From an uncultured Methanosarcinales archaeon (GTDB taxonomy: Archaea; Nanobdellota; Nanobdellia; Woesearchaeales; GW2011-AR9), in assembly GCA_964344235.1 (NCBI GenBank), contig CAYFMJ010000008.1, positions 1 to 35,048 of the forward strand: a stretch of DNA of 35,048 nucleotides, in the 5' to 3' direction. Under the pieces are notes generated by a model. It saw only the letters and a program-made list of their open reading frames with translations. It searched no databases and was not told where the DNA came from. This document shows positions 6,884-35,048 of this stretch, piece after piece (position 1 is the stretch's first letter; each line of letters opens with the position of its first letter). The translations under genes and the position numbers were made by a program.

Positions 6884-7897
6884 ATGGTTAGAGTTGCTAT
6901 CAATGGATTCGGAAGAATTGGCAGGATGATGCTGCGAGCAGGGTTTAATGATAAAAAATTAAATGTGGTAGCAGTAAACGATTTAACTGATACAAAAACA
7001 TTAGCGCACCTCTTCAAATACGATTCTGTGCATGGAACGTTTCCGGGAAAAGTGAGTTTTACAAAAAATTCTTTAACAATTGGCAAGAGAAAAATCAAAG
7101 TATTTGCTGAGAAAGATCCCGCACAATTACCGTGGAAAGATCTTAAAATCGATGTGGTTGTTGAAAGTACGGGACGGTTTAGAGATCCCAAAGCTGCAGC
7201 GGCCCATTTAACTGCAGGTGCGAGAAAAGTTCTTCTGTCAGCAACGTTTAGATCAAAAGAGGGTAAGGTGCCAAGTCATGCGATTACGGTAGTGAAGGGA
7301 GTTAATCATACAAAATATAACAGAAAGAAACATACCATCGTTTCCAACGCCTCTTGTACAACAAACAACGTTGCACCGGTGTTGAAAGTTATTCAAGAAA
7401 AAGTAGGGATTAAGAGGTGTTCATTCAATACTATTCATGGATACACCTCTAGTCAAAGAATTGTTGATTTGCCGCATAAAGATTTACGACGAGCTCGAGC
7501 TGCCGCTATTAACATTGTCCCTACAAGTACAAGTGCTGATAAAGCTGCAGTATTAACACTGCCTGGTTTGAAAGGGAAGTTAAGAGGGTTTGCATTCAGA
7601 GTTCCGATAGTCAATGGGAGTGTGACTGAATTTACTATTGAAACGAATAAATCAGTAACGGTTGACGGCGTAAACAAATGGTTTGCGGGTGCTGCACGGG
7701 GAAAAATGAAAAGTGTTATTGCATACTCTGCTGAGGAGTTAGTGTCGACAGATATTATTGGGAATCCACATTGTGCTATTTTTGATTCAAAATTAACAAC
7801 CGTTGTTGATAAAAAGCTGCTACACGTTGTAGCGTGGTATGACAACGAGTGGGGTTACAGTAATCGAATGGTGGAACTGATTAAGCACATTGCGTGA
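6884..7897 (+). CDS. gap: Type I (bacterial/eukaryotic class) glyceraldehyde-3-phosphate dehydrogenase
   Basis: INGFGRIGR, SNASCTTN (catalytic Cys), TIHGYT (catalytic His), AFRVP, WYDNEWGYS. SD GAGGTG upstream. Confidence 0.96.
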   Translation: MVRVAINGFGRIGRMMLRAGFNDKKLNVVAVNDLTDTKTLAHLFKYDSVHGTFPGKVSFTKNSLTIGKRKIKVFAEKDPAQLPWKDLKIDVVVESTGRFRDPKAAAAHLTAGARKVLLSATFRSKEGKVPSHAITVVKGVNHTKYNRKKHTIVSNASCTTNNVAPVLKVIQEKVGIKRCSFNTIHGYTSSQRIVDLPHKDLRRARAAAINIVPTSTSADKAAVLTLPGLKGKLRGFAFRVPIVNGSVTEFTIETNKSVTVDGVNKWFAGAARGKMKSVIAYSAEELVSTDIIGNPHCAIFDSKLTTVVDKKLLHVVAWYDNEWGYSNRMVELIKHIA

Positions 7898-9790
7898 TTA
7901 TTCAAAAAACAACTTCTTGACTCCATTTACCTTTCTCACACGACCAATGAGATTCTGTAAGTGTTCTAAGTCTCGTGGAATAACGTTGAATGAACACTGT
8001 GCATAGTTATTTCCAATTAATTTCGCTTTCGCCTCTTTCACCTCAAAACCAGTATTAGCAATAGTATGAAGTAAATCAGCAAGTAAACCACTTCGTTCAT
8101 CTGCTTCAACATAGAATTTTATTTTTTGGTTGAATGTATTACGCCACTGTACAGGGAGCCATCTATTTGATTCTTTCAGTGCTTGCCTACAGCCGTTCCA
8201 GTGTACAGAGATTATTTTTTTCTTTGTGAGAATACCGACAATCTCATCACCTGGAATTGCTAAACAACATTTTGCCAAGATACAACTTGCTTTAGGAAAT
8301 TCCTCTGAAAGAACAAGCGTTCCCTGTTCCTCCGTAACTTCTGGTTTAAATGACCGGAAATAAATGCCCGGCAGAGATTCATATTGTTTCAAAGACTTTC
8401 TAATTTTCTGACGAGATTTAGCAGAGGTAACAATCTTAATCCAACTTCGCCGCGGTCGTTGATTTTTGTTTGTAACCACTTCGACAACATCCCCCGAAAC
8501 CAGTTTATGTTTGATTGGAACGAACCTACCATTAACTCGTGCACCCACGGTTTGAGAACCAACTTCTTCATGCACCGAGAACGCAAAGTCTAGAACGGTT
8601 GAAGAGCGAGGGAGTTCTTTGACATCTCCCTTTGGTGTGTAACAATAGATTTTGTCACCAAAAAGATCTACTTTAAGAGTTTCAAGAAATTCTTTATTCT
8701 CAATGTTCTTCTGCATGTCAAGAACACCACGTAACCAGGCAATTTTTTTCTCAAACTTCTCTTCTGATTTACTGCCTTTGTATTTCCAATGCGCTGCTAA
8801 TCCCTCTTCTGCAAACTCGTCCATCTCAGGTGTTCTAATTTGTACTTCTGCTATCTTGCCATCAGGTAATTTAATACCAGTGTGTAGAGAACGGTAAAAG
8901 TTTGGTTTGGGATTGGCGATGTAATCTTTCAATCTACCTGAAAGGGGTTCGAAGTTTTCATGTAAGATTCCGAGGAGCGCGTAGCAATCTCTTTCTGTGG
9001 GAACGATAGCACGTAAGCCGATTAAATCATATTGCTGGGAGAAGCTGAGACCCTTCTTCTGCATTTTTTTGTAAATGCTGTAGATGTGTTTCGGTCTGCC
9101 TTTGAGTTTTGTTATTTGGATTTGATCATTAACAATGTCTTTGATTAATGAAAGAGCCCCTTCAACATTTCGCTCTCTTTTCTCTCTGGATTCTTCCAGA
9201 AAGTTCTGGATTTGTTGATGTTTTTTCGGATTGAGGTTCTGAAAAGCAACGTCTTCTAACTGTACTCGAATTCTTTCTAATCCTAAACGGTAGGCCAGAG
9301 GAGCATAGATGCTGAGAACTTCCTCCGAAAGTCGTTTCTGTTCTTCTGGTGGGAAGATGTGGACGCTCCGCATGTTGTCTAACTTGTTTGCAAGTTTAAC
9401 GAGCATAACTCTAATGTCACCCAAAGTGGTTAAGATGATTTTTCGGAGTGCTTCGGAGTCTAACTGCGGGTTTTTTGATTTAATTTCGTTAATTTTCCCA
9501 ACTTCACGGATGAAACTAAAGATGGTTTCACCGAAAAATTTTTTGATATGTTTTGCATGTTCAGTATTCTCAAGTGAATGTAGTATCCCTGCAATGACAA
9601 CCTCAGGTGCCGAATTGTTTTGGATTAGAATTTGGCCAACTCTGCAGTTGTGATCAAAGAACGTGTCTCCTACCAATCGTTTTTTTTCAGAAAGTGCTTG
9701 TTCCGCCAAGAGTACAGCTTGCTGAAATTGTTGAAGATCTTCCTCACTATACTGGTGCTCCTGCGCTAAAGTTTGGATCGCTGTCTGCAT
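7898..9790 (-). CDS. relA: Long RelA/SpoT homolog (degenerate HD, synthetase, TGS, ZFD, ACT)
   Basis: GRPKHIYSIYKKM, YDLIGLR, KDYIANPKPNFYRSLHT, EVQIRT, AAHWKYK. TGS motif TPKGD...DFAFSVH; C-terminal CCLAIPGD and SGLLADL. Confidence 0.95.
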   Translation of the reverse strand: MQTAIQTLAQEHQYSEEDLQQFQQAVLLAEQALSEKKRLVGDTFFDHNCRVGQILIQNNSAPEVVIAGILHSLENTEHAKHIKKFFGETIFSFIREVGKINEIKSKNPQLDSEALRKIILTTLGDIRVMLVKLANKLDNMRSVHIFPPEEQKRLSEEVLSIYAPLAYRLGLERIRVQLEDVAFQNLNPKKHQQIQNFLEESREKRERNVEGALSLIKDIVNDQIQITKLKGRPKHIYSIYKKMQKKGLSFSQQYDLIGLRAIVPTERDCYALLGILHENFEPLSGRLKDYIANPKPNFYRSLHTGIKLPDGKIAEVQIRTPEMDEFAEEGLAAHWKYKGSKSEEKFEKKIAWLRGVLDMQKNIENKEFLETLKVDLFGDKIYCYTPKGDVKELPRSSTVLDFAFSVHEEVGSQTVGARVNGRFVPIKHKLVSGDVVEVVTNKNQRPRRSWIKIVTSAKSRQKIRKSLKQYESLPGIYFRSFKPEVTEEQGTLVLSEEFPKASCILAKCCLAIPGDEIVGILTKKKIISVHWNGCRQALKESNRWLPVQWRNTFNQKIKFYVEADERSGLLADLLHTIANTGFEVKEAKAKLIGNNYAQCSFNVIPRDLEHLQNLIGRVRKVNGVKKLFFE

Positions 9791-11568: not shown

Positions 11569-11691
11569 GATTTATACCTCCATGAGTTTTTTTACTCAAA
11601 AGGGGAATTAAAGTATTTAAAGCTGTTGGTCTGGTAGAACTATAGTTCTGACTATAATAATCTATAAATACGTTTGTGGAGAAGAATTATT

Positions 11692-14094
11692 ATGCTGTTG
11701 AAAGAGGTGGTGTTACAGAATATTCGCTCATATAGACAGCAGAGGATTAATTTTTCTGAAGGTTCGACGTTATTGTCAGGAGATATTGGTTGTGGGAAGT
11801 CTTCTATCTTGTTAGCAGTTGAGTTTGCGTTATTTGGAACGTCAAGACCGGACCTTCCAGCAGAAGCGTTGTTGAAGAAAGGCGCTAACTCTGGGGCAGT
11901 AGAGCTGACGTTTAGTGTTAATGGAAAAGAAGTCATTGTGAAACGTAATTTGAAGAAAGAGAAGAGGGGCATTAAGCAAGTTGCAGGGTATATTATTGTC
12001 GATGGAGTGAAGAAAGAATTAATGCCAACGGAATTGAAAGCGGAGATTATTACATTGCTAGGATATCCGGGAGAGTTGATTACAAAATCAAAAAATTACA
12101 TTTATCGGTATACTGTCTATACGCCACAGGAAGAGATGAAGTTTATTTTGCAGGAGAATGCAGAGGTTCGGTTAGATGTTCTCCGGAAGATTTTCAATAT
12201 TGATAAGTACAAAAACATTCGAGAAAATGTGTGGTTATATTTACGAGGGATGAGAACGGAGATTACTGTATTGAAGACGAGGATAGAACCACTGGAGGAG
12301 CTACGGGATCAGTTGCAAGTATTTGAGAAAGAGAAGAGGGAGGTCATGAGTTTGTTGAGTGGGTTAGAACCACGGTTGCAGGAGTTGCAGAGAAACATTG
12401 CAGGGAGGAAAGAGGAGATCGCAGTTGTTGAGAAAGAAGAACGGGAACGGCAGCAGTTAGAACAACGAGGGAAGGAATTAGGATTATTGATTGAAGAGAA
12501 GCAGAAACAGATAGTGCAGTTACTGGAACAAGAGAAAAGTTTGCAGGAGCAGCTGCAGGGAGATGTTGGTGTCGGGGAGAAAGAGGTGTTGGAGAAAGAA
12601 GTTGCTGTGTTGGTTGAAGAAGAGAGATCATTATTGACGCAGCAAACGACATTGCAGGAGAAAGTTGCACAAATTCAAATGATGATTACGAAGAGAGGAA
12701 AAGAGGTTCGTTCGTTGGAGGATGCAGGAATTCTGTTACAGGAGAAGCAGACGTTAGTTGAGAAATTGCAGCAGAAGGTTGCGAGTAAGAAAGAGTTAGT
12801 TGAGAAACGACAACAGTTAGAGGAGTTATTTGGAAAGACGTCATCGTTAGTTGTGCAGAACGAGACTTTGTTAGGGAAGTCGAAAGAGTTGCGGGAACAG
12901 ATGAATGGTTTAGGGAGTTGTCCTACGTGTTTGCAGGAGGTTGATTTGGATCATAAGGAGAAGATTTGTGTTGAGGAAGAGAAGAAGATTACGCAGGCAG
13001 AGACGTTGTTATTTGAGTTGAAGAAGAAGCAAGCAGAGATTAGTGAGAAGCGGGAAAATATTGGAAAAGAAATTGAGGAAGTGTTGTTGCAGGAGAATGT
13101 TTTTGTGAGGACAAAAGTTGAATTAGAGAAGTTGCAGGAACAGAGTGATCTGTTGGAAGGGAAGAAAGAAGATATGAAGAAACTCGTGCAAGAAAATAAT
13201 AGTGTGATGGGACGATTGGCAGTGATGAAAGAACAGAATGTTGTGCAAGAAGTGCAGAGTAAAGTGCAGGAAAAGAGGAAATTGTTAGAGAGTATTATGC
13301 AGCGAGAGATGGTTCAACAGCAAATGCAGGAATTGCTGGGAATGAAAGTGGCTCGAGAGAAGGAAGTTGTTGGGTTGCGAGAGGAGTTGGTGGTGGTAGA
13401 GGGGTTATTCCGAGAGAAAGAGGATAAAACCGGGATGGTTGCTGAGAAGCGACGAGAAGTGGAGATGTTATTAGAACAAGAGAAAGCGTTGTCTGTCAAG
13501 AAAGCGGAAGTTATGACGAGGAAACAAAACCTTGAGCAGCGGGAAGCTGAGTTGCAGCGGAAGTTGAAAGAGTTGATGGCAGAGAAGAACAAGTTACTGC
13601 GGTTGCAAGAGTTACATCACTGGTTGGATGAATTTTTTATCAAGTTAACCTATACAATCGAGAAAAGAGTGATGATTCAAATTCATTATTTGTTTAACCA
13701 ATTATTTCAAGAATGGTTTAGTATTTTGATTGATGATGAGAATATGTATGCTAGAATCGATGATGCATTTAGTCCGGTGATTGAGCAAAATGGTTATGAG
13801 ATTGGATTTAGCAATTTAAGTGGTGGGGAAAGAACATCTGCATCTTTAGCATATAGATTGGCGTTGAATAGAGTGATTAATGATATTATCCATGAAGTGA
13901 AGACGAATGACATTTTGATTTTAGATGAGCCAACCGATGGGTTTAGTTCGGAACAGTTGGATAAAGTGCGGGATGTGTTGGAGAAGTTGCGGTTACAGCA
14001 GACGATTTTGGTAAGTCATGAAACGAAAATTGAATCGTTTGTGGAGAATGTGATTAGGGTTAGGAAGGATGAAGGGGAGAGCGTTGTTGTTTAA
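11692..14094 (+). CDS. rad50: Rad50/SbcC-type SMC-like ATPase
   Basis: Walker A GDIGCGKS, long coiled coils, zinc hook CPTC, signature LSGGE, Walker B ILILDEPT, H-loop VSHE. Confidence 0.92.
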   Translation: MLLKEVVLQNIRSYRQQRINFSEGSTLLSGDIGCGKSSILLAVEFALFGTSRPDLPAEALLKKGANSGAVELTFSVNGKEVIVKRNLKKEKRGIKQVAGYIIVDGVKKELMPTELKAEIITLLGYPGELITKSKNYIYRYTVYTPQEEMKFILQENAEVRLDVLRKIFNIDKYKNIRENVWLYLRGMRTEITVLKTRIEPLEELRDQLQVFEKEKREVMSLLSGLEPRLQELQRNIAGRKEEIAVVEKEERERQQLEQRGKELGLLIEEKQKQIVQLLEQEKSLQEQLQGDVGVGEKEVLEKEVAVLVEEERSLLTQQTTLQEKVAQIQMMITKRGKEVRSLEDAGILLQEKQTLVEKLQQKVASKKELVEKRQQLEELFGKTSSLVVQNETLLGKSKELREQMNGLGSCPTCLQEVDLDHKEKICVEEEKKITQAETLLFELKKKQAEISEKRENIGKEIEEVLLQENVFVRTKVELEKLQEQSDLLEGKKEDMKKLVQENNSVMGRLAVMKEQNVVQEVQSKVQEKRKLLESIMQREMVQQQMQELLGMKVAREKEVVGLREELVVVEGLFREKEDKTGMVAEKRREVEMLLEQEKALSVKKAEVMTRKQNLEQREAELQRKLKELMAEKNKLLRLQELHHWLDEFFIKLTYTIEKRVMIQIHYLFNQLFQEWFSILIDDENMYARIDDAFSPVIEQNGYEIGFSNLSGGERTSASLAYRLALNRVINDIIHEVKTNDILILDEPTDGFSSEQLDKVRDVLEKLRLQQTILVSHETKIESFVENVIRVRKDEGESVVV

Positions 14095-18293: not shown

Positions 18294-20750
18294 TCACATA
18301 AACTGTCCTAAACCGGTCTGCTTGCCTTTGCCCAATAATTCTTCATCAGAATAGCCTAATACAGCGAAGATGGAAGAAACGGCAGGAAGCAGCTGATGGT
18401 TCAAATAATAGTCAGCGTCATACTCTCCCGGTGGAACGTCATCAGGAATGGCTGCTCTTTCCCGTACTAAGCCAGAGCCTTCAGCAATGATATATTCAAC
18501 CATCGTTCCTGGCGTGATCTTGTGGCCTTGCATCTCCATCTTTCTCGCAACTAAAACGTGCGGGCCAATGGAAGTGTATTGCGATAAGTCACGAGTGATT
18601 TGAGTTTTCATAACCAATTTAGAGTTTGATATTTTCTTTGATTGCAGTTCTGATATTTTTTCTTTAACATATTCAATCGCTTCTTCTTTTTGATCAGATA
18701 ACACCAACTCCAACACGTGTTTCTGTGTTTCCTTCGCTAATGGAGACCAATTTCTCCGTACAAATTCAAACCCAGTGATTTTAAGGCCACCATGTTCATT
18801 GATTAATGCATACTTCTTCTTCGCTCCTTTGTCTGTTCCTTTCACCGCAACAAAAATGCCTCTTGGAAAGTGACCTTCAAACTCTAATTCCATATGGCCA
18901 GGAAGTTCAAAGTTGACTTCATTCATGAATTCCATTGCTTCCGTAAGATGTTTTTCCCCCAGCAATAAGAAGCAGGAATCTGTGTCAGCATAAATTACCT
19001 GGAAGCCCTTCTGTTCCGCTTTTTGGATAGTGGTGTGAATGTAATTTCGTGCATAGGCAGTGGTTGAGGCAGCACATTCTAAGCAATACCAGCGAGCACC
19101 AAAAAAGCCGAGGTAACCATAAAATGAATTCGCAAGAATCTTAAGGGCATAGGACCGTGCTTCCAGTATTTTTGTGTCTTCTCCTTTAGTTTTCTGTTCT
19201 TTAATCAGCCGTTTGAGGTCAACCCTTCGAAGAATAAGGCGTTCCAATACAGAGGGGAGGAATTTCTTTTCTTCTCGACAGAACCAGTAGTTCTCTCTCT
19301 CGGGAACTCTTTCTTTATCTTTACAGCAATCGCATTGGAAACTTTCTGGCCCAATATTATGTGCAGTAATAATTGTCGGATACAAAGAACGGAAGTCAAA
19401 GACGATCACATCTTTGTAGAGGTTAGGTGTTGGTTCATAGACAAACGCTCCCTGGATGTGTTCACGCATTCTTCTCTCCATTTGCTGACCGGAGGCTTTG
19501 TTAGGAGCTAGGACGTTAAATTCCATCGCTCGTTTCATGATGTAGTTCTCTACAAGCTTACTAAAGCGCATGTGGATGATGTCGTAGGAAGGGACGCCAA
19601 CGATTTTGGTAAATTCAATAATGTCAGGGAGAAGTTTTACAGCGAGAGTATGTGTTAGATGTGAATCGTGAAGGTTGTATTCACAGAAGTCATGTAACTT
19701 CTCGGGTTCATTATCCCAAATGTGGGCAAGTTCATCGAGGTTCACGTCATGTTTATTGTGGCCCAGTAACTCTTCCGCCACTGAATCGAGAGAATAACTA
19801 TCGGTTTTGAGATTCATGCCAAGAATGTACTTGATAAATTTGAAAATGTCTAGATGGAGTGTGCCTTTAATCTTTACTTCACTGGAACGGAAACCACTTT
19901 TTGCTCTGATTGTTGGTTCAGAGTAGTCAGTACCAATGTCAAATTTTACTTTATGTTTCTTTGCCCTAGCAAGAATGTACGGGAGATCAAAACCGTCCGA
20001 GAAATATCCGGTAAGGATATCTGGTTGGTATTGCAGAATAATTTCTTTACACCGTTTTAGTAGGTCTATCTCATCAGAAACAAATTCTAAGTACTCTAAT
20101 TTGTGAGAGAATTTTTTCCAAGTTATTACTTTTTTGAACGTTTCATTCTTTTCATTGATGCCATAGAATGCTATCATGAGAATTGGATTTTTTTCAAAAT
20201 TGATTTCCCGATCTTTCGCGTAGGTTTCAATGTCAATAGCAAGTGTTTTCCATTGTTGTAATGCGTCCTTGCCTGCATCCTGTATTGCAGTAGCGTGAAA
20301 TTCTGGAACACGTAAGGAACTGGTTTCTTTGAACTCTCCTTCTGCTTTAACAAGTGTCATCGGGGTGATGTTGACATCACGGAGGTAGCGGTGGATAAAT
20401 AAAACGTCTCGTTCGTAACATTGCATACCTCTCGCTTCTAATTCTTTTGCGATGATGGGAACTGCTTTGGGATAGTTGACGTAAATTTTGAGAAACCGTT
20501 GTGTTTTCCCTAGAAGTTCTTCTTCTGTTTCTTCTATGTTTGTTATTTTTGCAGGTTGATGTCTACCCGGGATAATGATGTCTCTTATTGAGGATGACGG
20601 GATGTTCTTCGGGTCAGCAAAAAAGAATGGTTGATGTTCATGAATCACACAGATTTTTGTACCATCTTCTAGCTTACTGTAGAGGTAGACGAGTACTTTA
20701 TTGTCCTGTAGTTTATAGTCAAAACTGTAGGGGTAGAAGGTTATTTCCAT
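18294..20750 (-). CDS. polB: Family B DNA polymerase
   Basis: Exo I DIETY, Exo II FDLPY, Exo III YNLHD, DFRSLYPT, KILANSFYGY, YADTDS. No intein. Confidence 0.97.
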   Translation of the reverse strand: MEITFYPYSFDYKLQDNKVLVYLYSKLEDGTKICVIHEHQPFFFADPKNIPSSSIRDIIIPGRHQPAKITNIEETEEELLGKTQRFLKIYVNYPKAVPIIAKELEARGMQCYERDVLFIHRYLRDVNITPMTLVKAEGEFKETSSLRVPEFHATAIQDAGKDALQQWKTLAIDIETYAKDREINFEKNPILMIAFYGINEKNETFKKVITWKKFSHKLEYLEFVSDEIDLLKRCKEIILQYQPDILTGYFSDGFDLPYILARAKKHKVKFDIGTDYSEPTIRAKSGFRSSEVKIKGTLHLDIFKFIKYILGMNLKTDSYSLDSVAEELLGHNKHDVNLDELAHIWDNEPEKLHDFCEYNLHDSHLTHTLAVKLLPDIIEFTKIVGVPSYDIIHMRFSKLVENYIMKRAMEFNVLAPNKASGQQMERRMREHIQGAFVYEPTPNLYKDVIVFDFRSLYPTIITAHNIGPESFQCDCCKDKERVPERENYWFCREEKKFLPSVLERLILRRVDLKRLIKEQKTKGEDTKILEARSYALKILANSFYGYLGFFGARWYCLECAASTTAYARNYIHTTIQKAEQKGFQVIYADTDSCFLLLGEKHLTEAMEFMNEVNFELPGHMELEFEGHFPRGIFVAVKGTDKGAKKKYALINEHGGLKITGFEFVRRNWSPLAKETQKHVLELVLSDQKEEAIEYVKEKISELQSKKISNSKLVMKTQITRDLSQYTSIGPHVLVARKMEMQGHKITPGTMVEYIIAEGSGLVRERAAIPDDVPPGEYDADYYLNHQLLPAVSSIFAVLGYSDEELLGKGKQTGLGQFM

Positions 20751-28991: not shown

Positions 28992-29077
28992 GGACTTAAC
29001 TTTATTTCTCACTATATAAATTTTGTTTACGCAAAGGGGTAACACAGGTTTTTATATGAGCTGTGTTTTCTGCGAGT

Positions 29078-29350
29078 ATGGTCCCCCTACGAATTCCAAT
29101 AGAATGTAGCAGATGTAAGAACACAGTGGATAAAGCACTTACACGAGCCATTGAGGGGAAAAAGAAAGAGTTTGAGTGTTTTGACTGTTTCAGGTCAGCA
29201 CGAGGGCAGGAAAGGCAGCAGAAGATTAAGCGGGATTTGTATTGCCAAAAGTGTAATTATAAGTTTAGTTCAAAGCGGTATATTTGCCCGTATTGTAATA
29301 TGATTGACTTTGTAATGGAAGGGAATGTCTCGGTGCAGGATTTACTATGA
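29078..29350 (+). CDS. Double zinc-ribbon protein
   Basis: CSRC, CFDC, CQKC and CPYC. TATA-like box at about 29050-29057. Confidence 0.8.
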   Translation: MVPLRIPIECSRCKNTVDKALTRAIEGKKKEFECFDCFRSARGQERQQKIKRDLYCQKCNYKFSSKRYICPYCNMIDFVMEGNVSVQDLL

Positions 29351-29700
29351 TACGAAAGTTATGGTCATTTTTTACGTCAAAGTTCTATTGGGGAGTCATG
29401 TTAATAGTACTGAGTTTTGTGTTGGGAAAAGTTGGCCAGTTACTGTTTTTACTGTATCTTGATGTGCCGTGGATCCGCTGGAGTGGTGTGGTGTTGTATG
29501 TGTTGACGTGGCCGATGTTGTTTCTTGGAATTTGGTGGGTTGGTCGAGAGTACGCGGAAGCTATCCAGAAGTATTTTACATACAAATTTTACCATCAAAA
29601 GATGGCGGCTGGTGCGAGGAAAGCAAAGGAAGTTGTGGGAAGGAGGATTAAAGCGCGTAAGGATAAGAAAAATGGCGCCACCGGCCAAGGGCGCAGATAA
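29347..29700 (+). CDS. Hypothetical 2-TM membrane protein with basic tail
   Basis: ATGA overlap with the upstream Zn-ribbon gene and two hydrophobic helices. Confidence 0.75.
   Translation: MIRKLWSFFTSKFYWGVMLIVLSFVLGKVGQLLFLLYLDVPWIRWSGVVLYVLTWPMLFLGIWWVGREYAEAIQKYFTYKFYHQKMAAGARKAKEVVGRRIKARKDKKNGATGQGRR
29673..29686 (-). other. Candidate attachment site resembling a tRNA 3' end (GGCCGGTGGCGCCA)
   Basis: Minus strand reads GGCCGGTGGCGCCA followed by TTTTTCTT. This is acceptor-strand CGGTGGC, discriminator G and CCA. No T-loop is present. Confidence 0.45.
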
Positions 29701-29783: not shown

Positions 29784-29820
29784 CCAGACTAAGCTTAGAA
29801 TGGTCTCAAAAGTATAAATA
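29784..29820 (+). promoter_or_regulatory. Palindromic operator candidate plus BRE/TATA of the element operon
   Basis: CCAgaCTAAGCTTAGaaTGG (16 of 20 positions symmetric), then CAAAAG-TATAAATA 22 nt before ATG29843. Confidence 0.55.
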
Positions 29821-29842: not shown

Positions 29843-29971
29843 ATGGCAACATGCACCATATGTAGAAAACAACTTGACGATGTCTGTGAAGACTGTCGCT
29901 TATTTTTAGAAAGAAAGTACAAAGACAAGGCGGCGGAAGCTGAGGAGATGCACAGGAGGGCAAACAAATGA
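29843..29971 (+). CDS. Small zinc-finger protein (42 aa)
   Basis: MATCTICRKQLDDVCEDCRLFL..., SD-like GGAGG before the next gene, and ATGA overlap with the MTase. Confidence 0.7.
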   Translation: MATCTICRKQLDDVCEDCRLFLERKYKDKAAEAEEMHRRANK

Positions 29972-30879
29972 AAGTTCTCGACCTCTTCTCTGGTTGCGGT
30001 GGTTTCAGTTACGGTTTTATGAAAGCTGGTTTTGAGGTAATAGGTTTCGTTGAATGTTGGGAACCTGCGATTCAAACATATAAACAGAATCATCCCGACG
30101 CGATTCACATTGGTACAGATATCACTAAAATCTCAGACAATGTAATTGCGAGGTATAAAGAAAAGATAGATGTTATTATTGGCGGACCACCATGCCAAGG
30201 TTTCTCACTGTGTGGGAAACGTAACAAAAAAGATAACAGGAATCAATTGTATAAAGAGTATTTACGGTTTGTAAGAATCATCCAGCCGAAAGCAGTTGTC
30301 ATGGAAAATGTGCAGGGGCTTCTGAGTATGGATGATTGCAATAATAGGAAAGTTATTGATAGAATCATCCATGATTTGATATCATTAGGTTACTCAGTGT
30401 GTTACAAAGTTCTTAACGCTTCAGATTACGGGGTTCCACAAAGAAGGAAACGATTATTCATCATCGGTTTGAAAATACCTCTCTTTCTTCTTAGAAAAAC
30501 GAAAGAGAAGACAGTGAATGAATCTCTCACAAATCTTCCACATAATGCTCATTTGTTTTTCAATACATCTCAAGAAGTTAAAGCAAGAATAAAACAACTT
30601 AACCAAGGCGAGAGGTTGTCTAAAAATTATAACTTTTCACGGCAACGTCTAGTGGGAGACAAACCTTCAAAGACAGTTGCAACGAAACCACTGTTCATTC
30701 ACCCATATTATGATCGTTTTCTCACTCCAAGAGAATTAGCGAGATTACAATCATTTCCAGATAAATTTCTTTTTGCAGGTTCAAAGACAAATATGGTGAA
30801 ACAGATTGGCAATGCTGTTCCTCCTAAATTAGCACAAACAATTGCCATACAATTGAAAGAGGTGATGTTTCATGTATGA
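29968..30879 (+). CDS. dcm: DNA (cytosine-5)-methyltransferase
   Basis: LFSGCGG (I), GGPPCQGFS (IV), MENV (VI), QRRKR (VIII), RELARLQSFPD (IX), QIGNAVPP (X). Confidence 0.97.
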   Translation: MKVLDLFSGCGGFSYGFMKAGFEVIGFVECWEPAIQTYKQNHPDAIHIGTDITKISDNVIARYKEKIDVIIGGPPCQGFSLCGKRNKKDNRNQLYKEYLRFVRIIQPKAVVMENVQGLLSMDDCNNRKVIDRIIHDLISLGYSVCYKVLNASDYGVPQRRKRLFIIGLKIPLFLLRKTKEKTVNESLTNLPHNAHLFFNTSQEVKARIKQLNQGERLSKNYNFSRQRLVGDKPSKTVATKPLFIHPYYDRFLTPRELARLQSFPDKFLFAGSKTNMVKQIGNAVPPKLAQTIAIQLKEVMFHV

Positions 30880-31123
30880 AGACGTAATTATTGGAATAGT
30901 TATTGGAATCATTATTTCTGTATTTGTGACAGAATTGATTCTGCTTACAATTCTTGTTGTAAGATTGATTAAAAGAAGGAAGGTTCTTCCTGAGAAAACG
31001 GTGACTGGTGTGAAAACTCTTTCTGGTGATACCTCCCCCAGTCCAGTCACTGAAACTCAAGAGGAAGAGCCTTCCCTCCTTTCATTCGTGTTTGATAAAA
31101 ACTTTCGAGGTGGATGTAAATGA
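30872..31123 (+). CDS. Single-pass membrane protein
   Basis: N-terminal TM followed by RLIKRRK. SD GAGGTGA, and overlaps both neighbours. Confidence 0.7.
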   Translation: MYEDVIIGIVIGIIISVFVTELILLTILVVRLIKRRKVLPEKTVTGVKTLSGDTSPSPVTETQEEEPSLLSFVFDKNFRGGCK

Positions 31124-31443
31124 AAAAACTATTTGGGTTAGTTATGCTGTTTATTCTAATTCCGCTTGCAGTGGCGGAAATAGATTTCGAGCAGGAGTTA
31201 ACGGCAGAAGAGAAAGATCAAGTGGATGACATCCTAACACCAATATTGAAAATCTATAATGTCATCAAATACTCCGCAACCGTTATTGGAGTATTGGTGT
31301 TAGTATTTGCTGGCGTGACATTCTTGACATCAGGTGGAGATAAGTTCAAGAAAGATAAAGCCAAGAATATGGGTATGGGGGTCGTGATTGGACTGATTGT
31401 CATCTGGGTGGCGCCGTTGATTGTCCAGTTTATTTTCTCATGA
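31120..31443 (+). CDS. TrbC/VirB2-like pilin
   Basis: Signal peptide (LAVA|E), then two hydrophobic helices separated by the loop TSGGDKFKKDKAKN. Confidence 0.8.
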   Translation: MKKLFGLVMLFILIPLAVAEIDFEQELTAEEKDQVDDILTPILKIYNVIKYSATVIGVLVLVFAGVTFLTSGGDKFKKDKAKNMGMGVVIGLIVIWVAPLIVQFIFS

Positions 31444-33449
31444 AAGGGGCACTGTTTCTTTTTTTTCTTTTCTTGATTCCATTAGCTACTGCGTTTGATT
31501 GTAGTACGGTTAGCAATGTTGAATACTGTGAACAAATACAGAATTCAGATCTCGCTGATTTAGAAAAGAATGAAATTTACTCAGCATTACTCTACCCAGA
31601 ATCCTCAATTCCTAAACACGATGTCATCAAAGAGTATAATGACAATATTGAAATATTTCCTTCACCTGAAAGCAGCAACAGTAAGTATATCAAGAACGCG
31701 TGGTTGTTGTTTGCTTCTCTATCACCCTCAGTGTATGATAATAAACTTTTAGTTCCTCCAGCCGTGCAGGCTTTTAGTCATTTTGATTATAATGTGCATC
31801 TACCGCAGAATTACTACGCTAGCTCGTATCCACAGACCAGTAACGGCGATTGTCAAAGAACGTACTCATTACACAGCAATGACGCAACGCTTAGTTACAT
31901 CGTAAATGGTAATGTTGTGAATAGTGATTTACTGTATATTGAATCATCTGGAACGATCACAGCACAACTACAAATTGATGTTACAGTTAAGCAGGAGCAT
32001 TATCACTGGAAAAAATATAAACAATGGGGAAAATGGAAATATAAGTGCGTTTATTCTCATGATAGTTACGAGGGTGATTCTATTTTCTTAGAAGAGAGTA
32101 AGGATGTTGTGTTGTATGACACACAACCAGAAGTAAATGTTGAAATTTTTGATATGTATGACTCAACAACAAGAGGAAAGTTTTCTGCGAGTGATTTCAC
32201 AACACTCCACGTTGAATTTCCGAACTCTTCCATTACTCAACAGCAGCAAACGTATTCAGTTATCTTTGATGAATTTTATGTTGCAACTCTGAAAGCGAAC
32301 AATAATAACTTCACTACAATATACAATGTGGTAGTAAATGCTAATGAATTCTATGTGAAAGATGCTACTGGATGCACATACAAAGCATATAATCATTTCT
32401 ACACAGTAGAAGACAACTGTAATCTTATAGAGCAAACACAGGAACATTCTCCATTAGAGTTGGAAGAAAAAACAATCGATCTAAGCATTTTCATTTACCT
32501 TCTACTGATTTTCTTGCTCTTCTACTTAATATTCAAAATCATTAAATCACAGGGTAAAAAATTCCTGCCTTTATTCATTCTCTTACTTCTATTACCAATG
32601 GCCTTGGCAGAACCAGAAGAAGATGAGTGCGGTATTTCAAACTTAGGGAGTTGCTTACCAAACCTTATTTACAACATAATTCTTGGCATACTTAATGCGC
32701 CATTAATCCCCCTCTTATTATGGATTAGAGAACTCTTTACTGCTGATACGACCATACAATTATTTCATGGGCTCTGGTCAATCGTGAGATATATCCTTAG
32801 CTTCTTCTACATATTTTTCTTTTTGTACGCTGGATTCACGTTTCTGACGTCCTCAGGCAATCCAGTGAAACGAGTGCAAGCAAAGAATATCCTGAGGGAT
32901 GCGTTCATTATGATTATCTTAATTCAAAGCTCATTCTATTTCTATGAATTACTCATTGCACTAGGTAATAATATGACTTCTTCTATCTTGGGATTTATTG
33001 ATCCTACGTTCTTTTTACTCACAGTAGATTCCATACCAAATATTCTCCTCCAGATTGTCTTTACCATTCCCTATGTGTTTGTACTGTTAACCACAACACT
33101 CTTGCTGATTATTCGTTATATAATTGTTACCGTCGGAGTTGTCATTTTCCCCATTGGCATATTCTGCTACTTCGTCCCGCCACTACGGGATTACGGTCAA
33201 TTCATATTTCACCTACTGGGCACAATGATTTTTATTACGTTTCTTGACATGCTAATTATTCTCGCTTGCTCACAAATTCTAGAAATCACCTTCTTTGCCA
33301 ATATCAAAATTTTGGTGATGACTGCCTGTTTTGGCATTGTTGCCTATACTATTTGGCTCGGTATCAAGATGGGATTCAAGAAATTTTCTGGGAACCTTGG
33401 CGACAAAATTTGGCAGGCAGGGAGATATTTAGGAGGAAGATTACAATGA
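31440..33449 (+). CDS. Secreted-domain / VirB6(TrbL)-like polytopic membrane fusion protein
   Basis: Signal peptide, about 330-aa polar domain, TM, internal signal-like segment, then multi-TM region containing a pilin-like motif and LIIRYIIVTVGVVIFPIGIFCYFVP. Located between the pilin and VirB4. Confidence 0.7.
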   Translation: MKGALFLFFLFLIPLATAFDCSTVSNVEYCEQIQNSDLADLEKNEIYSALLYPESSIPKHDVIKEYNDNIEIFPSPESSNSKYIKNAWLLFASLSPSVYDNKLLVPPAVQAFSHFDYNVHLPQNYYASSYPQTSNGDCQRTYSLHSNDATLSYIVNGNVVNSDLLYIESSGTITAQLQIDVTVKQEHYHWKKYKQWGKWKYKCVYSHDSYEGDSIFLEESKDVVLYDTQPEVNVEIFDMYDSTTRGKFSASDFTTLHVEFPNSSITQQQQTYSVIFDEFYVATLKANNNNFTTIYNVVVNANEFYVKDATGCTYKAYNHFYTVEDNCNLIEQTQEHSPLELEEKTIDLSIFIYLLLIFLLFYLIFKIIKSQGKKFLPLFILLLLLPMALAEPEEDECGISNLGSCLPNLIYNIILGILNAPLIPLLLWIRELFTADTTIQLFHGLWSIVRYILSFFYIFFFLYAGFTFLTSSGNPVKRVQAKNILRDAFIMIILIQSSFYFYELLIALGNNMTSSILGFIDPTFFLLTVDSIPNILLQIVFTIPYVFVLLTTTLLLIIRYIIVTVGVVIFPIGIFCYFVPPLRDYGQFIFHLLGTMIFITFLDMLIILACSQILEITFFANIKILVMTACFGIVAYTIWLGIKMGFKKFSGNLGDKIWQAGRYLGGRLQ

Positions 33450-35048
33450 GCTATGACATACCACCAGAATTACAGCACAAAGAAAAAATCTTTTTCGGAT
33501 TAACGTTTGAGCAGTTAGGCTATGCGTTTCCTGCATTGCTATTGGGTGTATTTTTGCTCAAGTTAGATTTATCTCTGCCTGTACTAATCCCTCTTGCTAC
33601 TTTCGTAGTAGCAATAACTTTCTTCTTAATGTTCTTTGATGGGTTGAAGCGAACAAAGGATTTACTGAAACATCTAACGAATCAAGAAGTGAGTGTCAAT
33701 AGTGAGAAACTCAAACGCCTTGTTGATATTAAAGAAATTAAAAACAGTATTATCACAACTTCAAAGACTAAAGTGGCGATCCTGGAAGTCATTCCGCTCA
33801 ATTTCATGATTAAAGCAGAAGATGAACAAGAAGGTATAATCAAAGTGTTTCAGAGGTTTCTTAACTCACTTGATTTTCCTATCCAGATTCATATTAGTAG
33901 TACAATTATCAACCTGAAAGATCACTTTAAACATCTTGAAACAAAGACAAAGCAATATCCAGAATTCTTTGATTCATATTGTAAGTTCCTTAAGCAATCA
34001 ATACAAGATAATGCTGTTAAGAACAGAAAATTTTACATTATCATTACAGAAAAAGATGATATTACCATGCAGACAAAAGTCTGTGAAGATAAATTAAAAA
34101 GTGTTGGGCTAAAAGTTAAACGGTTAGGGGAGAAAGAATTATTAGAATTATTTTACAAATATGTTGCGCATAATAAGAAAAAAGAATTGAAAGAAGATCA
34201 AGTAGTAGAGGATTACACTCATTTTTTACTTTCCCCAGAAAAAATTACGTTCCATCATGATTCCTTTGAAGTAAATAATCAGTTCTGTAAAGTCATCGCT
34301 GTGAAAGGCTATCCCCACACTGTTGAGATGGGTTTCTTGGATAAAATTATCAGTAGTGGAGATAATTATGATATTTCTATCCACATTCAGCCGTTTCCGA
34401 TCGAAGAAACAATGGTGCAACTCAACCGGGAACTACAAAAACAGCAAGCAGATTTGTATGCTGAAAGTAAGAAAGGAATTATTAATCCCTCCTTGGAAAT
34501 TAAGTTTAATTCAACTCGTAAGGTGTTGGAAGACTTACAGCGAGGTAAGCAGAAGCTGTTTAATGTTTCTTTGTATGTTATGTGTAAAGGTAAAACCAAA
34601 GAAGAAGCGGAGTTAGTTTCTAAACGTGTTAAAGCCGATTTGGAGGGGTTGATGATTCAATCTAGAATTCCTTTGTTTCAGTGTATGCAAGGATATGAAT
34701 CATTGTTACCTCTGGGAAAAGATACACTTAAACTAAAAAGAAATATTCACACGGAAGGATTATCTGCATTCTTTCCGTTTTCTTCTCCCTTCTTAGATAT
34801 CCAAAAGGGTGGAATTCTTCTTGGCTTGAACAAGAACAAAATTCCTTACATCAAAGATGTATTCAAATTGACGAATGCCAATGGCATCATCCTCGCAACT
34901 TCTGGCGCAGGCAAATCCTATTTTACCAAATTAATGATTTCACGGCAGTTCATGAACGGTGCTGATGTCATTATCATTGACCCTCAGGGGGAATATCTTG
35001 CAATTACAGAACATTACAAAGGGGAAACGATTACGATCTCTAAGAACA
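33446..35048 (+). CDS. virB4: PrgI/VirB3-like N-terminus fused to VirB4-like ATPase (3'-truncated by window edge)
   Basis: Open frame from ATG33446 to the end, absent from the ORF track. Reads MSYDIPPELQHKEKIFFGLTFEQ plus 2 TM, then LSAFFPF, Walker A ATSGAGKS and IIIDPQGEY. Confidence 0.88.
   Translation, partial: MSYDIPPELQHKEKIFFGLTFEQLGYAFPALLLGVFLLKLDLSLPVLIPLATFVVAITFFLMFFDGLKRTKDLLKHLTNQEVSVNSEKLKRLVDIKEIKNSIITTSKTKVAILEVIPLNFMIKAEDEQEGIIKVFQRFLNSLDFPIQIHISSTIINLKDHFKHLETKTKQYPEFFDSYCKFLKQSIQDNAVKNRKFYIIITEKDDITMQTKVCEDKLKSVGLKVKRLGEKELLELFYKYVAHNKKKELKEDQVVEDYTHFLLSPEKITFHHDSFEVNNQFCKVIAVKGYPHTVEMGFLDKIISSGDNYDISIHIQPFPIEETMVQLNRELQKQQADLYAESKKGIINPSLEIKFNSTRKVLEDLQRGKQKLFNVSLYVMCKGKTKEEAELVSKRVKADLEGLMIQSRIPLFQCMQGYESLLPLGKDTLKLKRNIHTEGLSAFFPFSSPFLDIQKGGILLGLNKNKIPYIKDVFKLTNANGIILATSGAGKSYFTKLMISRQFMNGADVIIIDPQGEYLAITEHYKGETITISKN

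Follow-up and report, generated by a model that had tools for sequence, protein, structure and literature searches.

The last 5.2 kb of a 35,048-nucleotide stretch of archaeal DNA (the window, meaning the whole of the stretch that was analysed) hold the left part of one copy of an accessory mobile module that appears to build a minimal type IV secretion system (T4SS) of the monoderm, MPF-FATA-like kind in a Woesearchaeota-type DPANN archaeon. A preliminary description of this DNA had read the genes concerned as a zinc finger, a C5 cytosine methyltransferase (MTase), a membrane protein, a pilin, a VirB6-like fusion protein and a VirB4-like ATPase. Every one of those assignments held, and we are highly confident of the identity of the module's parts. 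The further proposition, that the module is a self-transmissible integrative element with a conjugative role, is one to which its genes and their surroundings lend about even chances.

The window is the entire contig C8 of a 1.19-Mb genome (G000; 37 contigs, 96% complete, with gaps), so the interruption of the VirB4 gene at its right-hand end is an assembly break and not a matter of biology. The six open reading frames (ORFs) that had been described as chained by overlaps behind a TATA box are all present on the + strand between positions 29843 and 35048, and they overlap successively by 4, 8, 4, 4 and 4 nucleotides. The features are as follows.

29808-29820, + strand: candidate archaeal promoter read from the sequence, a purine-rich stretch resembling a B-recognition element (BRE) with TATAAATA.
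29843-29971, + strand: ORF for a 42-amino-acid zinc finger (CxxC-x7-CxxC), the partner of the MTase.
29968-30879, + strand: C5 cytosine DNA MTase of the M.HaeIII/HhaI type, 303 amino acids (PF00145, TIGR00675).
30872-31123, + strand: ORF for an 83-amino-acid protein that crosses the membrane once and has an acidic tail; its position is conserved.
31120-31443, + strand: VirB2/TrbC-type T4SS pilin, 107 amino acids, with a signal peptide and two hydrophobic helices.
31440-33449, + strand: ORF for a 669-amino-acid fusion protein, whole gene.
31440-32474, + strand: N-terminal half of the fusion, with a signal peptide, a beta-rich tandem immunoglobulin (Ig)-like domain and a transmembrane helix (AlphaFold2 and Foldseek).
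32556-33449, + strand: C-terminal half of the fusion, a VirB6-like polytopic membrane protein with a vestigial signal peptide and a first hairpin that resembles a pilin.
33446-35048, + strand: first 534 codons (complete to 35047) of a PrgI/VirB3-VirB4 fusion ATPase, with two transmembrane helices, the VirB4 N-domain and a Walker A motif; open at the contig end.

By its sequence the motor ATPase is a VirB4. The window fragment matched the PrgI model over residues 5-81 (28.3 bits, cut-off 27), VirB4_plasma at 223 bits and CD1110 at only 183 bits, the last because the fragment is truncated; its Walker A motif, GAGKS, lies near residue 480. Three full-length paralogues are encoded in the same genome, on contigs C5 (1033 amino acids), C9 (1011) and C4 (1040), and that of C5 is 90% identical to the fragment over its 534 residues. 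At the CD1110 cut-off of 325 bits the C5 and C9 proteins pass (339.5 and 329.9 bits) and the C4 protein falls below (295.7 bits), and the other top NCBIfam matches of the paralogues were all to VirB4, TraC or TrbE families. A comparison with all PDB sequences gave the monoderm VirB4 4AG5 at 1.7e-35, DptH at 4.5e-4 and a HerA-like helicase at 0.08. The grouping with HerA or FtsK that the preliminary description had named as fatal to its VirB4 assignment was thus not seen. When plasmids were searched with tblastn, only Firmicutes- and Actinobacteria-type VirB4s were recovered, at 22-31% identity.

VirB4 homology stops near residue 810 of the full-length copies and about 200 further residues follow. 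This tail lies beyond the window, in the sister copies and on contigs C19 and C28, which are discussed below. A family-wide search found at least 193 VirB4 loci in species-level genomes, and the best 80 of the 193 (42-75% identity) were examined. The tail is present in 77 of these 80 loci, always fused to VirB4, and the pattern E..H..D..ExETG..K is 95-97% conserved across the 77 copies. Its structural model (mean predicted local distance difference test score, pLDDT, of 84) had Cdn1 (4e-4), NucS/EndoMS and Can2 as its top Foldseek matches (E-values of 4e-4 to 2e-3), with EcoRII and HindIII also among the matches. Neither Pfam as a whole nor the Replic_Relax model matched the tail, a PDB profile search with the tail alignment returned nothing significant, and the ESM Atlas, with scores of no more than 0.82, was uninformative. 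The fold alone is not decisive; taken with the conserved residues, it makes the tail, which sits at the motor's cytoplasmic end, a probable metal-dependent PD-(D/E)xK-like nuclease.

The pilin passes the thresholds of both PF18895 (38.9 bits, cut-off 26.6) and PF04956, TrbC (29.6 bits, cut-off 27.9). Neighbourhoods were counted in the 38 loci, out of the 80, that have full 6-kb flanks, and a pilin stands beside VirB4 in 35 of them. The 669-amino-acid product of the next gene was modelled by AlphaFold2 at a pLDDT of 76 overall and of about 90 over residues 84-326; the order is a signal peptide, the beta-rich domain (84-326), a transmembrane helix, a second segment resembling a signal peptide (376-396) and a helical bundle within the membrane (399-668). 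Foldseek matched the beta-rich domain to Ig-like modules of adhesins, S-layer proteins and cell-adhesion proteins (E of about 1e-3), and the predicted fold suggests a putative adhesin surface domain. The membrane half (B6) is a separate gene of about 295 codons with its own signal peptide in the related genomes G026 and G030, which makes the window protein a true fusion. The Ig-like half is likewise a separate gene, or is absent, in some relatives, and was present in 26 of the 38 loci.

A profile of the B6 half gathered 623 cluster representatives, mostly stand-alone proteins of 290-350 amino acids, and in 36 of the 38 loci B6 is the gene immediately 5' of VirB4. Of 48,161 chains compared by structure, TrwI/VirB6 matched B6 best, and its ESM look-alikes all belonged to TrbL-family clusters. 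The fusion of the preliminary description is borne out by the stand-alone membrane half, and the TrwI/VirB6 match agrees with its VirB6-like label. The protein also carries a trace of the pilin: residues 45-95 of the pilin are 31% identical to residues 445-495 of the fusion protein, and an NCBIfam pilin-like model matches residues 435-504. The curated VirB6/TrbL models (Pfam TrbL and NCBIfam CD1112) matched neither the window protein nor 26 of its homologues nor 10 distant members of the 623-member family; hhalign of B6 against the CD1112 VirB6 protein gave a probability of 0.1, and a PDB profile search with the B6 alignment gave nothing significant. Some B6 homologues have weak precomputed TrbL_3 matches. 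We regard the membrane half as VirB6-like by its position, predicted topology and modelled fold, and not as a member of the curated families.

The core of pilin, VirB6-like protein and VirB4 is accessory, patchy, multi-copy and linked to recombinases. Among 40 related genomes that were scored for its presence or absence, a full-length VirB4 was found in about 10. One of these genomes, G009, has three copies, two of them arranged head-to-head around integrases, each with the order MTase, pilin, B6 and VirB4. The preliminary description had considered that an operon inherited vertically and in synteny, with no integrase, would speak for a chromosomal system; such a pattern was not seen, and the occurrence that was found lends support to its proposal of an ICE-like (integrative and conjugative element) or minimal DNA-transfer machine. 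On independent contigs the order integrase, MTase, small membrane protein, pilin, B6, slot and VirB4 is repeated with changing cargo, which includes UvrD in the slot between B6 and VirB4, restriction-modification (RM) and Dnd genes nearby, and a diversity-generating retroelement (DGR). The insert between B6 and VirB4 exceeds 300 nucleotides in 14 of the 38 loci. When 140 large flanking ORFs were assigned with Pfam, giving 25 listed families, DNA methylases were the commonest (nine N4/N6, seven C5, four HsdM and two Dam-like), followed by TFIIB and tyrosine integrases with five each. Since methylases lead this census, a methylase beside the T4SS core is a trend of the family, and the MTase of the window is cargo and not core. 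The TFIIB/TFB paralogues, which lie within 6 kb of VirB4 at positions 18885-19682 of locus L039 and at four loci among L042-L121, may be transcription factors encoded by the element.

The genome itself holds about five diverged copies of the VirB4 module: that of the window (C8), two on C5, and one each on C9 and C4. Between copies dN/dS is 0.04-0.11 and dS is 0.4-1.7; because of these values we read the copies as old and under purifying selection, and not as recent duplicates or wrecks. The preliminary description had pointed to the downstream DNA as the place for the VirB4 C-terminus, a VirD4 or relaxase gene, an integrase and a second att copy. Candidate C-termini were found on C19 and C28, both of which start with the end of a VirB4 (residues 782-1033), the nuclease-like tail included, followed by a 61-amino-acid ORF and then a serine recombinase; on C19 a TrmB regulator comes next. 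This order is the one found after the complete C5 copy. Since the closely related VirB4 N-termini number three (C8 and the two on C5, C5a and C5b) and so do the matching C-termini (C5a, C19 and C28), the window gene should continue on C19 or C28. Neither VirD4 nor a relaxase follows the VirB4 ends on those two contigs. The integrase was found at the sister copies. In the complete C5 copy a tyrosine integrase and a small partner gene replace the zinc finger and MTase upstream, with the serine recombinase downstream, and in the C4 copy a tyrosine integrase abuts VirB4; at the window copy the contig break comes before any integrase.

Further details of the sister copies were noted. The second C5 copy (L011 8697-9797, corresponding to C5:44702-45797) is a 5'-truncated VirB4: it opens at about residue 170, directly behind leuS, and is cut by the end of its contig at the codon where the window gene is also cut. 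It is 96% identical to the window copy. The slot between B6 and VirB4 on C9 (L009 7211-10156, + strand) holds a complete DGR with a 287-amino-acid target gene, an 86-amino-acid ORF and a 574-amino-acid reverse transcriptase (RVT_1 and HTH_40); its variable region (7798-7884) and template region (8281-8367) differ at 14 positions, 13 of them at template adenines. G024 and G009 likewise have a reverse transcriptase within the module or close to it. After the C9 VirB4 comes an HTH_10/AlaX block (C9 1947-4102) that is 86-88% identical in the closest relative, G019 (L037, C106 8684-10861), where it sits in a different gene context, like that of contig C23 of G000. No VirB4 was found in G019, and the alignment of G019 with C9 begins within the last 18 nucleotides of the C9 VirB4 gene. 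On C5 a 32-nucleotide direct repeat (L008 10546-10577 and 11866-11897, 94% identical) flanks the pair of small gene and tyrosine integrase, and each of its copies ends in a TATA-like box facing a downstream operon; the repeat could represent a shared promoter or operator, or the ends of a nested mini-element. Diguanylate cyclases of the GGDEF type are rare in archaea. A gene for one adjoins the C5 element (L008 12120-13028), and another lies beside an independent Woesearchaeota copy (L039 21798-22055).

At the head of the window operon, the stretch at 29808-29820 that carries TATAAATA ends 22 nucleotides upstream of the first ATG. Its sequence fits an archaeal BRE/TATA box from which a leaderless transcript would be expected; the C9 copy has only the TATA-like box in common with it. 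The MTase is unambiguous in its models (PF00145, 275 bits, cut-off 22; TIGR00675, 230 bits, cut-off 101) and its motifs FxGxG (I), PCQ (IV), ENV (VI), QRR (VIII) and GNAVP (X) can all be read in the translation; the nearest solved relatives are 3G7U (5.8e-45) and M.HaeIII (4.8e-37). No restriction enzyme gene adjoins it, which makes it an orphan MTase. The preliminary description had presented the operon as having its own C5-methyltransferase. That identification stands, with the correction that the MTase is not part of the core: an MTase of this type occurs in 8 of the 38 loci, as frequent but optional cargo. The 42-amino-acid zinc finger had no significant family match, its Pfam matches all being below threshold. 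An 81% identical counterpart lies beside the MTase of C9, the copy that retains the finger/MTase head, with a dN/dS of 0.08, and G009 encodes this finger and the MTase as one 362-amino-acid ORF (L030:3121-4209), with the finger in frame at the MTase N-terminus. Because of this fusion we read the finger, from its sequence, as part of the MTase enzyme. A 47-amino-acid gene beside the L039 MTase was considered as a further example and rejected, since it is not the finger. The 83-amino-acid membrane protein matched no Pfam or NCBIfam family; counterparts on C5 and C9 are 39-55% identical, and a small membrane-protein gene occupies the same position on independent contigs. The ORFs at 29063-29700, upstream of the operon, were rejected as parts of the element because they are unique to C8, and the drop in GC content over the element (0.33-0.41 against about 0.40) was too mild to be used as evidence.

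Archaeal models gave the best matches to the rRNA operon when overlapping matches of the same clan were compared (1396 bits for the small and 1041 bits for the large subunit), and the homologues of the 669-amino-acid protein and of VirB4 come from metagenome-assembled genomes (MAGs) named Candidatus Woesearchaeota, Pacearchaeota, Nanoarchaeota or Nanoarchaeia. On these grounds the host, already described as DPANN-like, is by its sequences a Woesearchaeota/Nanoarchaeia-type DPANN archaeon. Nearly all of the best 80 of the 193 loci belong to MAGs of Woese-, Pace- or Nanoarchaeota. Three contigs with bacterial labels (L073, Cloacimonadota; L076, Bacteroidota; L087, Bdellovibrionales) encode VirB4s that share 48-52% identity with those of the archaea; the likely cause is mis-binning or mislabelling, with transfer between domains a less likely one. 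The name "uncultured Methanosarcinales" is attached to many MAGs that are clearly Woesearchaeota-like. Of the sampled words, 12% occurred in one small public sequencing run, which was uninformative on habitat, bridging or excision. Elsewhere in the window, positions 12001-14000 show a very strong GC skew (0.49-0.53) compared with the rest, within an ORF (11674-14094, + strand) whose 806-amino-acid product may be repetitive or compositionally biased. The small contigs C16-C19, C21, C22, C25 and C26 have a GC content of 0.34-0.37 against about 0.40 elsewhere in the genome and may represent further mobile elements; on C16 and C18 there are genes for P-loop ATPases that stand alone and weakly resemble HerA/TrwB.

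ICEs built on a T4SS are already known, as are MPF-FATA members in archaea and the Ced and Ted systems. We found no description in the searchable literature of a conjugation-type module in DPANN archaea or Woesearchaeota, of a fusion of VirB4 with a nuclease or of a fusion of an Ig-like domain with VirB6. The module resembles the MPF-FATA systems of ICEs and plasmids in Firmicutes and Mollicutes in its best VirB4 families (CD1110, 339.5 bits against a cut-off of 325, and the Mycoplasma ICE ATPase Mbov_0397, 349 bits), in having the monoderm VirB4 4AG5 as its best solved relative, in weak matches to Mbov_0395-type pilin-like proteins and in the gene order VirB6-PrgI-VirB4, which is that of the Firmicutes CD1110-type Clostridium plasmid pCDC3875 with CD1112 as VirB6. 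Unlike them, the module joins PrgI and VirB4 in one protein that ends in a nuclease-like tail, and its VirB6-like protein, unmatched by any curated VirB6 model, is combined with an Ig-like domain. It also has a true VirB2-type pilin and an archaeal host, and it lacks VirD4, a relaxase and a cell-wall hydrolase.

With the Ced system of Sulfolobales and the Ted system of Thermoproteales the module shares a core of VirB2-like pilin, VirB6-like protein and VirB4-like ATPase and the lack of a relaxase (PMC9905601). A pilin-like hairpin at the start of the protein has been published for CedA/CedA1 and for VirB6/VirB2, and the VirB6-like protein of the module begins with such a hairpin, as CedA/CedA1 do (PMC9905601). 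The only match to a Ced component model was to CedD at 43 bits (cut-off 600), by the C9 VirB4, in a library whose coverage of CedA and CedB is uncertain and which has no Ted model. In contrast to Ced and Ted, the module is multi-copy, patchy and found next to recombinases, that is, it is not domesticated, and it has a nuclease-like tail fused to the motor and an Ig-like fusion. The conjugative elements of Sulfolobales and Nitrososphaeria usually also carry a second ATPase that is VirD4/TraG-like. These plasmids and ICEs are like the module in having a VirB4-like ATPase, in being integrated or plasmid-borne and in their lack of a recognisable relaxase, but they are reported (PMC6563490, as summarised in PMC9905601) to be without a recognisable pilin, whereas the pilin here passes Pfam thresholds. 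In the Patescibacteria (Candidate Phyla Radiation), VirB4 is present in 2,417 of 3,035 genomes, with 2,474 homologues or about one per carrying genome, and is chromosomal; the T4SS is thought to have been co-opted for epibiosis and is needed for epibiotic growth (PMC12102498). That system too derives from MPF-FATA, has VirB2-like pilins nearby, is mostly without a relaxase and belongs to an ultrasmall, host-dependent organism (PMC12102498). In the present case the module is accessory, multi-copy and linked to recombinases and methylases.

These observations are consistent with a cycle of transfer that might run as follows. The element would be excised or nicked, and the cytoplasmic PD-(D/E)xK-like tail of VirB4 would process the DNA in place of a relaxase. 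VirB4, with no separate coupling protein, would then drive the DNA into the VirB6 channel and the pilus while the Ig-like domain held the partner cell. A serine or tyrosine recombinase would insert the element into the DNA of the recipient, and methylation of the element DNA by the zinc finger/C5-MTase pair would allow it to survive restriction. The most specific part of this scheme is that a single polypeptide made up of VirB3, VirB4 and a PD-(D/E)xK nuclease would be the missing DNA-processing enzyme of archaeal conjugation, nicking or cutting the element and pumping it through VirB6/VirB2 with neither relaxase nor coupling protein; we advance this part tentatively, as a possibility well short of even chances. 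Several results weigh against a self-transmissible element. In only 11 of the 38 loci did iterated integrase and resolvase profiles detect a recombinase at a distance of 6 kb or less; the C9 copy has none, and that of the window copy is inferred via C19 and C28. The 96% complete genome yielded no relaxase of the MOBC, MOBP/Q, MOBT or MOBF types (PF13814, PF03432, PF02486, PF08751), of which MOBC is itself of the PD-(D/E)xK type, and no match to the coupling-protein family PF02534 (T4SS-DNA_transf); neither function appeared in the list of 25 families drawn from the 140 flanking ORFs. The PF01580 FtsK model gave one weak match outside the T4SS loci (C1:130241-130354, 16.3 bits, cut-off 24); PF10412, TrwB, matched only the VirB4s and, on C16 and C18, a pair of generic P-loop ATPases that were rejected after a Pfam scan. 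There were no convincing att-type direct repeats around the complete C5 copy, where the 32-nucleotide pair around the integrase pair was the only one seen, so that the second att copy was not found. The genes flanking the C9 copy (HAD and AlaX) showed no empty site in 25 genomes of the family, synteny being lost at genus distance.

The absence of relaxase and coupling protein can be accommodated by other functions. A domesticated T4SS resembling Ced and Ted might import or scavenge DNA from neighbouring or host cells, with the motor nuclease trimming or degrading the incoming strand for recombination or to supply nucleotides to an auxotrophic DPANN cell, and with the methylases marking self DNA. 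The core of pilin, VirB6-like and VirB4-like proteins that is shared with Ced and Ted, again with neither relaxase nor coupling protein (PMC9905601), would suit such a machine, as would the cytoplasmic placement of the nuclease-like tail on the motor, the RM and methylase genes that are the commonest neighbours and the majority of loci with no recombinase within 6 kb. Its patchy presence (in about a quarter to a third of relatives) and up to five diverged copies per genome are, however, better suited to selfish elements than to housekeeping uptake; integrases and serine recombinases abut several copies, Ced-specific models went unmatched (CedD, 43 bits, cut-off 600) and the nearest families are the conjugative VirB4s of Firmicutes and Mycoplasma ICEs. 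On this balance we consider import less probable than conjugation, but a live alternative. The Ig-like surface domain fused to the channel protein raises another possibility, that of an episymbiont apparatus in which this domain attaches to the host and the cargo moved consists of proteins or metabolites instead of DNA. There are precedents in the T4SS of Patescibacteria (PMC12102498) and in the giant Ig-domain/VirB4 proteins of Nanohaloarchaeota (PMC10266531), and the C9 copy contains a DGR that diversifies a binding protein; the lack of relaxase and coupling protein in a 96% complete genome would be expected here too. Yet the Patescibacteria system is nearly universal and chromosomal, in contrast to this patchy, multi-copy module with its linked recombinases; a nucleic-acid substrate is indicated by the nuclease-like active-site pattern that is so strongly conserved on the motor, and the methylase and RM neighbours suggest DNA traffic. 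We judge host contact or effector secretion to be less likely still, though also a live alternative.

The operons might, finally, be decaying and now functionless remnants of old elements, their organisation a historical leftover. One copy is indeed 5'-truncated beside leuS, and the C9 copy lacks a recombinase and is interrupted by the DGR cassette. It is very improbable that this describes the module as a whole, given that all six window ORFs are intact and show translational coupling, that dN/dS is 0.04-0.11 across the copies and that the core is kept in 35-36 of 38 loci over a phylum-level span.

The mechanism of archaeal conjugation is an open question, and the known archaeal conjugative plasmids and the Ced and Ted systems have no recognisable relaxase. 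What makes the module a useful candidate in this context is its small size of about six genes, its wide occurrence, with 193 loci or more in species-level genomes, and its clearly recognisable parts. It offers a tractable system in which to study relaxase-independent DNA transfer and the exchange or uptake of DNA by ultrasmall, host-dependent archaea, and the Ig-like domain on its channel protein suggests how partner cells may be held. If the conjugative reading is true, conjugation that dispenses with both relaxase and coupling protein would be widespread in DPANN archaea of the Nanoarchaeota type, and it may promote gene flow between cells of this host-dependent kind.

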